From NCBI RefSeq assembly GCF_003790525.1, contig NZ_CP033635.1: DNA of 64,000 nt; one strand, written 5' to 3'. Below the pieces are notes generated by a model that saw only the letters and a list, made by a program, of their open reading frames with translations, searched no databases and was not told the DNA's origin. Numbering within the stretch: position 1 is the stretch's first letter; the number at the start of each line of letters is the position of its first letter. Shown one piece after another: positions 21,798 through 25,646 of the stretch. The stretch comes from Escherichia coli. GTDB taxonomy: Bacteria; Pseudomonadota; Gammaproteobacteria; Enterobacterales; Enterobacteriaceae. A program made the translations under genes and the position numbers.

Positions 21798-23054
21798 TCA
21801 CTGAAAAGGCCATGAGCTGGAGGAAAACGATCTGCCCAGAAAGTCTATCGGTTCCTCTCTTATCGCCTCATTGTAATAATCGTTATTACAGTAAGTATTG
21901 TTTATTTCATCTAATGTCATATTTTTAATTTTTATATTCATCTGATTTACAACTTCTTCTGTTTTATAAGTGTGTATATTATATGGGGTATATGCTTCTT
22001 TAATAGTATAGTGAAACAATTCGTTATCCACATCTACTCCGTCAGAGTGAACTTCAAATGCACCAGGCGAAAGAATTGCCAGGCCAGTATTAAGCTTAAG
22101 TGCTGGGGAAAATAAATTAAATAACATGAGCTGCATAGTAGGGCAATTGTTCTTCCCAGAAACATTTAAAAAATTTAAGTTTTTGCTCTGTTTTATTATG
22201 GGGAATAAAGTTCCAATATCGGATGTATTCTTAGTGTCAATGCGGGTTATTTTATTATTGTCCAGCCTTAAACTTTTGATAGATGAAAGATAAGTCAGGA
22301 AATGAAGGTTTATTTTTTCCAACTGATTGTTCGCAGCGTTTAATGTCTGAACATTGCAGAAGTTGCTAAAGAATATTTTAATTTCAGAAAGCAAGTTGTT
22401 GTTGATAAGTAACGTATTCAAGTTGGGGAATAAGGCATTATGTAAACTTGTTAGTTTATTATGGGATAGATCCAGTAGTAAAAGTTCATCTTTATTTTCT
22501 GCCACAATATCAGTTAATTGATTGTGGCTGAGATTCAGGTACTGCAGCCTTTCGCAACATTCTAATTGCACAAACTCTAGTTGATTATGTGCCGCACTAA
22601 AATAAGTAATTGATGAAAGCCGATCTATATCAATATTTCTGAGAGAATTATTATTCATAGATATATGTGTAATGCTTACATTTCTACCTTGAGGAAAATT
22701 TATTGACTCAAGAGCATTACTATTCAGACTAAGCTTTACGAGTCTATCGTAGGTGGTTGTATCAAAATGTGTGAGTTGGTTATTATCAAGATTGATAGAG
22801 GTGAAGTTTTGCAGCCCTGGTGGTTGGGTAGTTAAATTAAGTCCTGATAAATCAATATCATTCTGTTTCGACAAAAAAGCACAATTTATCCTTTTAGCGG
22901 CTTCGTTTCGGCATTCCGGACGATGGATTTCACCTGTAAGTATGCGTTCTGCTTTCCATTGATTTAATTCGAGCATCCAGTTAAGTTCATTTTTTTCTGG
23001 ATGTTGCTGTATGGATTGTGGATTTATTTTATTAAATATTAAAGGGAATTTCAT
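21798..23054 (-). CDS. Leucine-rich-repeat protein, IpaH/YopM-like LRR domain without NEL domain (yddK-like)
   Basis: 418-aa ORF with ~20-22-residue LxxLxLxxNxL repeats, no Sec signal peptide, and an N-terminal W…E.R…A..RI..C…DLSGLNLT..P motif like that before the LRRs of IpaH/SspH/SlrP effectors; visibly AT-rich. Confidence 0.7.
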   Translation of the reverse strand: MKFPLIFNKINPQSIQQHPEKNELNWMLELNQWKAERILTGEIHRPECRNEAAKRINCAFLSKQNDIDLSGLNLTTQPPGLQNFTSINLDNNQLTHFDTTTYDRLVKLSLNSNALESINFPQGRNVSITHISMNNNSLRNIDIDRLSSITYFSAAHNQLEFVQLECCERLQYLNLSHNQLTDIVAENKDELLLLDLSHNKLTSLHNALFPNLNTLLINNNLLSEIKIFFSNFCNVQTLNAANNQLEKINLHFLTYLSSIKSLRLDNNKITRIDTKNTSDIGTLFPIIKQSKNLNFLNVSGKNNCPTMQLMLFNLFSPALKLNTGLAILSPGAFEVHSDGVDVDNELFHYTIKEAYTPYNIHTYKTEEVVNQMNIKIKNMTLDEINNTYCNNDYYNEAIREEPIDFLGRSFSSSSWPFQ

Positions 23055-23116
23055 AACTGCTCCGTAGTAATGCTTTATTTTAATGATTTATTACCCTTGA
23101 TAAATCAGGATGTGTT

Positions 23117-24382
23117 TTATAACTCTGTTGTAAAGGATTGGCTTAACCAATTATTGGATGTTGGACCAAAACCTAAGGAAGGTTTATCCTCATTATGAAT
23201 ATAATAACAGACGGGTGTGCCCGTTGGGTCCTTTAGCCCCGAGTGTGAGGGTAGAGAAGAGGAATTTGACTTATAGTCACCAACCCCGTACATGCGACGC
23301 ATAGGCAGAATAGCTTTTAGTTCTGCGTCAGAAAATATTGTTTCTTCTTCTATTAAGGCGTACTCTCTGGAATAATATTTTGATCTATAACGAATAGACA
23401 TTGAGTCATTTTCTTTTATATGATTTCCTTCGGAATTCTCGCTTACTTCTACAAGATGTTCATCGCTGGTATCGATATTTGTGATTGCCAGGTTATAAGA
23501 TAAATCAATGGTCACTTCATTAGTGTCATCAATTATATTTCTTACTGCAGTCCAGTACTGCATTTGGGCAAGTGGATCATTGTTGATGCCGTTAACTAAT
23601 ACATGCCAAAGATGTTTTGATGATATTAATTGATCAATGTCATCTGTTGGCAATAAATTGTTATTGCTTAAGTTTAAATATTCCAGTTTTGTAGTGGTTT
23701 TCGCGTTTAAATGTGCAATATGGTTGTCGTTTAAAGTGATTTTCTCCACTATGGGGTGATTGTGTAATATAAGGTCATTGATCATGTTGTGATGGGCACT
23801 TAACTCAATCAGAGATTCTTGCCGGGAGAGATCCAGCGATGCTAGTTTGTTATAATCAAGATTAAGAAATTTCAGTTTATAACTATCAGAAATATTAATT
23901 TTTGTCAGGTTGTTATTTTGCGCTTCCAGGTTAACCAATGAAAGCTGATTTTTTAAATCCAAATTTTCCAGATTATTGTGATCAATATAAATATTTTCCA
24001 GTTTTGATTGATTTGGAAAGGTTATCGTTTTAATTTTATTAAAGCTGAGGTTGATATTGACGAGGCTGGCATTGTCAGTAAAGTCAAGACAAGTGAGACA
24101 ATTGTTTTCCAGATTTAACGTGTTAACTGTCGAGGGGATAGGGGGTAACTCACTCAAATCAAGATATGACAAATCAAGAGATGCCATGTTCGAATTGTAA
24201 GCTTCTTTAATTCGCTCCACGGCAATTGCTCTTTCTTCACCATTATTAAGCGACTTATTACCCCATTGTGCCAGTCGTTCACAAAAATTGCTGGAGATGG
24301 TTTCTTTGTTAGGTAATGCGTTATTTAATTGATAACTGGCATTATTTTTTACACAAGCTGTATTAATATTGGTCATAATCAC
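23117..24382 (-). CDS. Leucine-rich-repeat protein, paralogue of the adjacent LRR gene (yddJ/yddK-like)
   Basis: 421-aa ORF; N-terminus …WGNKSLNNGEERAIAVERIKEAYNSNMASLDLSYLDLSELPP… then more than 10 LRR units; AT-rich; no signal peptide. Confidence 0.7.
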   Translation of the reverse strand: MIMTNINTACVKNNASYQLNNALPNKETISSNFCERLAQWGNKSLNNGEERAIAVERIKEAYNSNMASLDLSYLDLSELPPIPSTVNTLNLENNCLTCLDFTDNASLVNINLSFNKIKTITFPNQSKLENIYIDHNNLENLDLKNQLSLVNLEAQNNNLTKINISDSYKLKFLNLDYNKLASLDLSRQESLIELSAHHNMINDLILHNHPIVEKITLNDNHIAHLNAKTTTKLEYLNLSNNNLLPTDDIDQLISSKHLWHVLVNGINNDPLAQMQYWTAVRNIIDDTNEVTIDLSYNLAITNIDTSDEHLVEVSENSEGNHIKENDSMSIRYRSKYYSREYALIEEETIFSDAELKAILPMRRMYGVGDYKSNSSSLPSHSGLKDPTGTPVCYYIHNEDKPSLGFGPTSNNWLSQSFTTEL

Positions 24383-24513
24383 TCATCAATAAATATTATA
24401 GTAAGATGTCCCCGGAGGGTATGGAATAATATTAATTGAGGTGAATGACCAGATATATCAAAAATTGCTCATTTTTACTTAAGGAGTCATACAGCAGCAC
24501 TTAAATCAAAAAC

Positions 24514-24542
24514 CAGCCCAGAGAAGGGCTGGTCAGGAGAGG
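24514..24542 (-). terminator. Rho-independent terminator after the porin gene
   Basis: Stem ccagccc-agagaa-gggctgg followed on the minus strand by tttttgattt. Confidence 0.55.
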
Positions 24543-24545
24543 ATG

Positions 24546-25646
24546 TTAGAACTGATAGGTAATTCCCGTTGCGACGATGTTATCGGTGCGAATATCTACG
24601 GCACGGGTAAAGTCGCTTTCATCAATCAGGTTGATTTTATAATCAACATAGGTCGACATATTTTTGTTGAAGAAATACGTCGCACCAACGTCGATATACT
24701 CAATCATGTCCTGGTCGCCGTAGCGGCCCAGATCTCTGCCTTTCGATTTCAGGTAAGCGAGTGATGGGCGCAAGCCGAAGTCGAATTGATATTGTGCCAC
24801 TACTTCAAAACTTTGTGCTTTGTTAGAGATATAACCATCGCCATAGGTGGTCATGTTTAATGTTTCAGCGTAATTAGCTGCAAAGTAGATGTTGTTGGCA
24901 TCATATTTTATACCTGTAGCCCACAGTTCTGCATTCTTACCGGAGGCATTGAGAGGATTAGCAGCGGCTCTTTCCTGCGCATTTGTCCGATCGGATTTGG
25001 TATACACCGCACCGATACCAAAGCCATCATAAACATAAGTTGAGGAGATACCGAAACCGTCACCATTGGCACGCGTGTAGTCAGCACCATAAAGATGACC
25101 ATTGTCAGTGCGTTCATTTTTGCCTTGATATTGCGCGGCAAAGTTCAGACCTTCAATTAAGCCGAAGAAATCGTAGTTGCGATAGGTTGCCACACCGGTA
25201 GTACGGTATGTCATGAAGACATCTTTCTGACTCCAGGTATCGCCACCAAATTCTGGCAACATATCGGTCCATGAACCAATGTCATAGCCGACACCGTAGT
25301 TACGACCATAGTCCAGAGAGCCAAATTCACTAATTTTTAAACCTGCATAGGCCAGACGGGTCTTGTTACCGCGCGAGCCGTTGGCTTCATCGTTATAGCC
25401 TTTAAAATCATATTCCCAGTGACCAAAACCAATCATTTGATCATTGATTTGCGTTTCTCCTTTAAAGCCGAGACGGGCATAAGTTTTATCACCATCGTCA
25501 CGCTTATCATCAGTAAAATAACGTAGAGCGGTAACCTTGCCATAAAGGTCGAGTTTATTACCATCCTTGTTATAGACTTCGGCAGCGTGTGCTACGTTCG
25601 CAGCTAACAAACCAGTTACAACCACCGCAACTATTTTTAATTTCAT
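24546..25646 (-). CDS. General-diffusion outer-membrane porin, OmpC/OmpF/PhoE family (intact gene at the yddL position)
   Basis: 366-aa ORF with signal peptide [38 protein letters not shown] and the C-terminal terminal-Phe barrel signature (…TGITYQF). Confidence 0.85.

Follow-up and report, generated by a model that had tools for sequence, protein, structure and literature searches.

A porin gene and two leucine-rich repeat genes between narU and yddG

We analysed a 64,000-nt stretch of Escherichia coli DNA from contig NZ_CP033635.1 (the window), in which the interval between narU and yddG carries a gene for a 366-amino-acid porin (24546-25646, minus strand) and two genes for leucine-rich repeat (LRR) proteins. 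The porin gene is z2239 of O-island 62 and is named ompC in RefSeq (WP_000768393.1). Upstream of it lies yddG, which encodes a drug/metabolite transporter (DMT)-type exporter (25904-26785, minus strand), and downstream lie LRR gene 2 (LRR2, a 421-aa open reading frame (ORF), 23117-24382, minus strand) and LRR gene 1 (LRR1, 418 aa, 21798-23054, minus strand), followed by narU (20100-21488, minus strand) with narZ beside it on the same strand. With fdnG starting at 27017 on the plus strand, the window reads fdnG on the plus strand and then yddG, porin and narU on the minus strand, and the first-pass annotation, which had described the porin as co-oriented with and upstream of the two LRR genes between narU and yddG, was correct in this respect. 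No phage genes were found in the flanks of the porin among the ORFs and annotation of the window, and strain SMS-3-5 (NC_010498.1) matched the segment 21500-26000 at 100%.

The porin matched the Pfam family Porin_1 (PF00267) over its whole length (E = 2e-134), scoring 448.6 bits where the cutoff is 23.7, with residues 27-366 aligned to profile positions 1-337, and chains of solved OmpK36/OmpC structures matched it at E ~1e-127. A Sec signal peptide ending in AHA can be read directly from codons 1-21 (25584-25646, minus strand) and is followed by a mature N-terminus as in OmpC, and the protein closes with ...ATGITYQF, an aromatic β-signal with a terminal Phe, bearing out the earlier description of an intact porin with these two hallmarks. 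The loop-3 motif PEFGGDTW is kept, and the constriction residues K16, R42, R82, R132, D113 and E117 (OmpF numbering) are all conserved, corresponding to K37, R58, R97, R148, D128 and E132 of the window porin. In addition, the position of OmpF K80 is occupied by Lys, as in OmpD, OmpF and PhoE, rather than by the Trp of OmpC and OmpN. An AlphaFold2 model of moderate confidence (mean pLDDT 75, pTM 0.74) adopted a β-barrel with a long loop 3, and its 17 DSSP strand segments were consistent with the 16-stranded porin topology, in which the short first segment (residues 23-25) would belong to the last strand and complete it, as it does in OmpF. Every defining feature that we tested was found, and the protein is a member of the general porin family.

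The porin occupies the position of OmpD

Identities were taken from one alignment, except for Escherichia albertii, which was compared separately. The porin was 99.2% identical to the copy of O157:H7, 93% to the yddG-linked porin of E. albertii, 77.6% to the porin of Citrobacter koseri and 73.5-73.7% to Salmonella OmpD, with the OmpD group as a whole at 72-78%. The values were lower for K-12 NmpC/Lc (68.4%), OmpN (62.0%), OmpC (61.7%), OmpF (60.6%) and PhoE (59.3%), and the top match among 50,697 phage records reached 69.6%. The best full-length matches were those of E. albertii, C. koseri and Salmonella OmpD, and no named porin had a higher identity than those of the OmpD group. The earlier placement in the OmpC family holds in that the protein is an OmpC/OmpF-type general porin, but it is neither OmpC (62%) nor OmpN (62%) nor NmpC (68%), and is best described as an OmpD orthologue. 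OmpN was considered and rejected as its identity, given the 62.0% value and the location of ompN elsewhere, at the uspF-ompN-micC-ydbK locus. A neighbour-joining tree (100 bootstraps) placed the porin inside an OmpD/NmpC/Lc super-clade, apart from OmpC, OmpF and PhoE.

The gene order around the porin was more telling, with yddG as the synteny anchor to the ompD loci. Salmonella and C. koseri share the order fdnI-H-G <- / yddG -> ompD -> GFA <- smvA -> smvR -> narU -> narZ, and OmpD of Salmonella, Citrobacter and Enterobacter and the window porin occupy the same slot in the same orientation, between fdnG/yddG on one side and narU on the other. All fetched loci that had a porin of 69% identity or more and sufficient flank showed the order fdnG <- / yddG -> porin -> ... 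narU; they span six genera and comprise Salmonella (including S. arizonae), C. koseri, ~30 loci of Citrobacter, Enterobacter, Lelliottia and Intestinirhabdus, and E. albertii. In addition, ~190 nt upstream of the porin ATG could be aligned with the ompD promoter and 5′ untranslated region (UTR) across six genera, and the pore-lining residues, including the Lys at the OmpF-K80 position, are identical to those of OmpD. The conserved yddG-linked synteny, which we regard as decisive, together with the upstream homology, identifies the porin as the positional orthologue of OmpD of Salmonella enterica serovar Typhimurium (STM1572), which also has orthologues in Citrobacter and Enterobacter hormaechei, and hence, on this evidence, as its true E. 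coli counterpart, of which yddL of K-12 is the stump.

The loci differ downstream of the porin, where GFA and/or smvA-smvR are found in Salmonella, Citrobacter and Enterobacter and two LRR genes in E. coli. Loop 4 of Salmonella OmpD lacks a 6-residue insert that the E. coli and C. koseri porins have, and OmpD is a well-studied porin in Salmonella. NmpC/Lc of the lambdoid prophages DLP12 and PA-2 shares the broad OmpD/NmpC/Lc clade, the fold and the motifs with the window porin but is encoded near the Q antiterminator and lysis genes of a prophage, whereas the window porin belongs to the chromosomal backbone. OmpN and PhoE, which are quiescent or expressed conditionally in E. coli, resemble it as extra general porins besides OmpC and OmpF and in their weak codon bias, but differ in sequence (59-62% identity), in their loci and in their inducing signals, PhoE being under PhoBR control. 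The exact porin protein, called 'porin OmpC' or 'porin protein LC', was found on 1,000 contigs or more, in a cluster that is contaminated with LepA.

An E. coli-specific insert downstream of the porin carries the LRR genes

Both LRR genes and the porin terminator are contained in a 2.9-kb E. coli-specific insert of ~35% GC (21672-24547) that is missing from E. albertii, Salmonella and Citrobacter. In E. albertii, the order is yddG-porin-narU with nothing between porin and narU and no LRR genes, and homology to the window ends exactly at the porin stop codon (24548) and restarts at 21671. No LRR genes were present at the yddG-porin site in any of the Salmonella, Citrobacter, Enterobacter, Lelliottia, Intestinirhabdus and E. 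albertii loci. The GC content is 44% in the porin gene, 34-35% in the LRR genes and 49-50% in the flanking genes. Given that E. albertii keeps the porin without the LRR genes, the porin and the LRR genes did not come in one arrival; the comparison of these loci indicates that the porin is ancestral at its yddG-linked position and that the LRR pair was inserted downstream of it later, in low-GC DNA that also brought the present terminator. The first-pass annotation had viewed the three genes as a compact accessory module, a view that is contradicted by the ancestral position of the porin in six genera without LRR genes, by the low-GC insert and by the terminator between porin and LRR2.

This intrinsic terminator (24501-24534, minus strand) consists of GACCAGCCC-UUCUCU-GGGCUGGU followed by UUUUUGAUUU. 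Its hairpin, at 24534-24511, starts 12 nt past the porin stop and has a 9-bp stem with 6 G-C pairs, close enough to the terminator previously placed at 24514-24542 to confirm that the porin has one of its own. The 71-nt segment holding it has a folding energy of -21.4 kcal/mol (z = -3.7 relative to shuffled sequences), and the spacer between porin and LRR2 measures 163 bp. Co-transcription of the porin and LRR genes is unlikely. An earlier caveat, that the porin might prove to be a well-characterised paralogue such as OmpN or NmpC transcribed independently of the LRR genes, applies in part: the gene is the orthologue of a well-characterised porin, which is OmpD rather than OmpN or NmpC, and its independent transcription is likely.

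LRR1 is 91% identical to an O157 protein that RefSeq names type III secretion system effector EspR1, and SMS-3-5, a multiresistant commensal according to Okeke et al. 2011 (PMC3079680), has an intact EspR1 orthologue in LRR1. LRR1 and LRR2 are distant paralogues, with 29% identity over their LRR parts. The LRR2 ORF is intact in SMS-3-5, where RefSeq/PGAP calls within it no more than a 288-bp pseudogene piece marked 'incomplete' (23498-23785). Strain E500002 has an annotated homologue, a hypothetical protein of 419 aa, and in O157 the gene is in two pieces (z2240/z2241, PMC3079680). The missing LRR2 call is probably an annotation miss by PGAP arising from homology to K-12 YddK.

K-12 retains the scars of two deletions

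The locus was previously described as O-island 62 of enterohaemorrhagic E. coli (EHEC) O157:H7 EDL933 (z2239-z2242), corresponding to orf1599-1601 of enteroaggregative E. coli (EAEC) 042, and its reported carriers include SMS-3-5, EAEC 042, UMN026 and IAI39 (042, UMN026 and IAI39 being ECOR group D strains), O55:H7 and some Shigella (Okeke et al. 2011, PMC3079680). That study never calls z2239 a porin, regards the set as one recent island and derives the K-12 state by an 'insertion of yddK' (PMC3079680). The window holds the same locus, with SMS-3-5 as a named carrier and a porin 99.2% identical to the O157 copy, but our comparison differs from that account in that the porin is ancestral and two deletions, one of which lies between 11-bp repeats in the LRR paralogues, produced the K-12 state.

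In K-12 MG1655, the locus contains only yddL (291 bp), yddK and the pseudogene yddJ. BLAST showed that K-12 keeps only window positions 25363-25646 of the porin, its first 284 nt, in agreement with the earlier statement that K-12 has only a porin fragment, yddL, at this site. Alignment of K-12 with the intact locus yielded three collinear blocks separated by two deletions, on which ground the proposed insertion of yddK was rejected. One deletion (23831-25362) removes the last 817 nt of the porin gene, its terminator and the 5′ part of LRR2, and leaves yddL. The other (22857-23498) lies between 11-bp direct repeats, GATAAATCAAT, in the LRR paralogues and fuses LRR2 to LRR1 to give the chimeric yddK, whose sequence joins the middle of LRR2 with a C-terminal portion of LRR1. 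The repeat copies are found at window positions 22846-22856 and 23499-23509 and at 5429-5439 of the fetched K-12 locus. On the strength of this alignment, yddL, yddK and yddJ are deletion scars and not genes with their own functions. In a third allele, represented by strain AR_451, a deletion of 21672-25827 makes narU abut yddG with a 12-bp filler; its narU-side border (21672) is the base where E. albertii homology restarts, so that an insertion border and a deletion border coincide in the region 21660-21680, and it adjoins an inverted repeat, GTTACATTTAGTAAC.

In a survey of 5,426 complete E. coli genomes, 1,111 (20%) had 80% or more of the porin gene, ~3,156 (58%) had just its first 278-284 nt, as K-12 does, and 1,159 (21%) gave no porin match. 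Of the 1,111 porin carriers, 1,008 also had 80% or more of the 4.5-kb segment as a whole. A porin coding sequence was annotated in 11/11 sampled full-length carriers, and PGAP labelled it ompC in all sampled genomes.

Upstream region, selection and codon usage

The ompD 5′ UTR of Salmonella is 69 nt long (Fröhlich et al., PMC3333887). In the window, a candidate porin promoter (25726-25755, minus strand) comprises a -35 element TTGTGT (25755-25750), an 18-nt spacer and a -10 element TAAAAA (25731-25726), the latter suitably placed for a 69-nt 5′ UTR. We infer from the alignment that this candidate corresponds to the TTGAAC...TAAAAA that precedes the Salmonella ompD start mapped at -69, its -35 being weaker than that of ompD (TTGTGT versus TTGAAC). 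A promoter scan returned 18 hits against 18.0 in shuffled sequence, no excess, and the promoter calls are therefore based on ompD homology only. The block around the Shine-Dalgarno sequence AAGGA (25656-25660, minus strand) is nearly invariant across genera, and a GATCACA block (25792-25798, minus strand), a candidate regulator half-site, is invariant in all six aligned genera. The -10-like TAAAAA is another invariant block of this alignment.

Pairwise dN/dS among three E. coli alleles and that of E. albertii was 0.02-0.04, indicating strong purifying selection on the porin where it is retained. The underlying dS was at most 0.18 within E. coli and very high, ~1.5 (1.3-1.7), against E. albertii, even though the two proteins share 93% identity. 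As a proxy for expression, we used the fraction of C-ending codons over Asn, Tyr, Phe, Asp, His and Ile, which was 0.42 for the window porin, 0.33 for the E. albertii porin, 0.36 for phoE and 0.44 for ompN, and 0.67-0.83 for ompD of Salmonella, Citrobacter and Enterobacter, 0.71 for ompF and 0.87 for ompC. Similarly, CTG accounted for 0.32 of Leu codons in the window porin, compared with 0.81-0.88 in the ompD genes of the other genera. In Salmonella, OmpD dominates among the porins (PMC4215857); by the codon proxy, the window porin does not have the character of a major porin. In E. coli and E. albertii alike, the yddG-linked porin has lost the codon bias of high expression that marks ompD in Salmonella, Citrobacter and Enterobacter.

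Interpretation and alternatives

Taking these observations together, we consider it likely, at roughly 80%, that the gene product is a functional general-diffusion porin, a trimer of 16-stranded barrels and the Escherichia orthologue of OmpD of Salmonella, Citrobacter and Enterobacter, and that the gene forms its own monocistronic unit. By analogy with its family, the protein would be exported through its Sec signal peptide and inserted by BAM through the C-terminal YQF. The pore would be narrowed by loop 3, with the observed PEFGGDTW motif facing the observed K/R/R/R ladder, and would conduct as in other porins of this type. Transcription would start from a promoter of its own in the yddG-porin spacer and end at its own terminator, independently of the LRR genes. 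The LRR pair inserted later downstream of the porin, and deletions made the locus polymorphic.

Several observations weigh against parts of this reading. The neighbour-joining tree did not resolve the porin as sister to the syntenic OmpD group and gave a bootstrap of 40 for the branching of these two and the prophage NmpC group, so that the orthology rests on synteny and the identity ranking. The yddG-porin spacer has half the length in Escherichia, 257 versus 524-568 bp. Two small RNA (sRNA) target sites of Salmonella ompD, both in the early coding sequence (MicC, +67 to +78; RybB seed, ~+19 to +26), are altered in the window porin. The MicC site GAGGUAUAUAAC reads GAAGUCUAUAAC at 25569-25580, and the best predicted MicC duplex is -11.9 versus -20.8 kcal/mol in Salmonella and at a different position. 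The RybB heptamer site GCAGUGGC reads GCGGUGGU at 25620-25628, with a predicted -14.3 versus -19.1 kcal/mol. The regulation, and even the expression, of the porin may differ from that of Salmonella ompD or be absent. Codon bias is only a proxy for porin expression, the terminator belongs to the E. coli-specific insert and may let some transcripts run on into the LRR genes, and no searchable paper mentions ECs2076, the Sakai tag that we assigned to the porin from gene order. The altered RybB and MicC sites cover porin codons 7-9 and 23-26, respectively.

The weak codon bias, the half-length spacer, the weaker -35 element and the altered MicC and RybB sites suggest that the OmpD orthologue of Escherichia works as OmpN or PhoE does, as a general porin that is minor or expressed conditionally, and it would, judging by its codon usage, not be dominant as in Salmonella. 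An alternative reading holds that the ORF is intact but silent and decaying toward a K-12-like pseudogene, given that the gene is lost or truncated in ~80% of E. coli, that its codon bias is weak, that its upstream region is shortened with a -35 of TTGTGT instead of TTGAAC, and that the literature search turned up no expression report. We consider this unlikely, as a dN/dS of 0.02-0.04 has been maintained over a dS of up to 0.18 in E. coli and of ~1.5 against E. albertii, every functional motif is intact, and the 190 promoter-proximal nt are conserved, as is the Shine-Dalgarno sequence. Slightly less probable again, and rejected here, is the view of O-island 62 as a single horizontal acquisition of the porin with both LRR genes, possibly as an operon. 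The three genes are co-oriented between narU and yddG, most porin carriers (1,008/1,111) hold at least 80% of the 4.5-kb segment, the third allele is without all three genes, and Okeke et al. treat z2239-z2242 as one recent acquisition with 33-36% GC (PMC3079680). However, porin-yddG synteny extends over six genera without LRR genes, including E. albertii, the GC content of the porin (44%) departs from that of the LRR genes (34-35%), the homology break falls at the porin stop codon, and a strong terminator and a 163-bp spacer separate porin and LRR2, while shared descent and neighbour-spanning deletions would explain the co-occurrence within E. coli.

Two further alternatives concern the identity of the porin. 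In the field, E. coli 'OmpD' is commonly taken to be nmpC (PMC3333887; PMC10321414), some sources use the name 'outer membrane porin protein LC', and the broad clade and the 68% identity shared with NmpC/Lc could suggest a domesticated or relocated prophage porin. This origin is very improbable, since the flanks are devoid of phage genes, whereas K-12 nmpC lies between quuD and the essD/lysis cassette of DLP12, the top match among the 50,697 phage records reaches only 69.6%, and the chromosomal synteny is kept across genera. The RefSeq/PGAP name, applied in all sampled genomes, would make the porin a second copy or allele of OmpC, which we regard as hardly tenable. The name follows from a score of 495 bits on the subfamily-level NCBIfam model NF007841 ('porin OmpC'), marginally over its 484-bit cutoff, but the identity to K-12 OmpC (61.7%) is no closer than that to OmpN or OmpF, the closest relatives are OmpD-type, and Lys replaces the Trp of OmpC and OmpN at the OmpF-K80 position. 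Moreover, the porin lies away from the ompC-micF-rcsD locus, which is itself separately present in 5,362/5,426 genomes.

Returning to the OmpD orthologue, we can go one step further and speculate, tentatively and with more doubt than confidence, that in the ~20% of E. coli that carry it the gene is a conditionally induced third general porin, an ancestral target of the conserved network of porin control by MicC, RybB and SdsR that was hidden from view by its loss in K-12. If so, its presence or absence would alter the entry of β-lactams and carbapenems, the phage receptor repertoire and antibody targeting. More remotely still, read-through from the porin promoter could drive the downstream EspR-type LRR genes.

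Relation to previous work

The gene is already known as a catalogued member of a published island, and its assignment to OmpD is a relabelling rather than a new system or new biology. In the literature, an sRNA study takes prophage nmpC as the E. coli counterpart of OmpD (PMC3333887), E. coli 'OmpD' means nmpC in PMC10321414 and 'porin protein LC' in PMC7696260, and PMC6996330 names E. coli 'OmpD' without saying which gene is meant. No searchable paper links OmpD with yddL, and the top-ranked papers for z2239, ECs2076, ECs2073 and EspR1 contain no mention of this porin. The orthology statement may usefully clarify this nomenclature, as the RefSeq label 'ompC' gives carriers two 'ompC' genes, and the comparison accounts for yddL, yddK and yddJ as scars left by deletions. 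In Enterobacter hormaechei, joint loss of ompD and ompC trades virulence for carbapenem resistance (PMC11874173). Studies of porin-loss resistance and phage receptors in O157 and other carriers should count a third OmpC/OmpF-type porin.

Flanking features

An Rfam scan of positions 20000-28000 found nothing near the porin and had a single match, a selenocysteine insertion sequence (SECIS) element (RF01989, 84 bits) at 27599-27657 on the plus strand. It coincides with an in-frame TGA, the expected selenocysteine codon of formate dehydrogenase-N, at which the ORF listing of fdnG is broken into 27017-27604 and 27653-30064.

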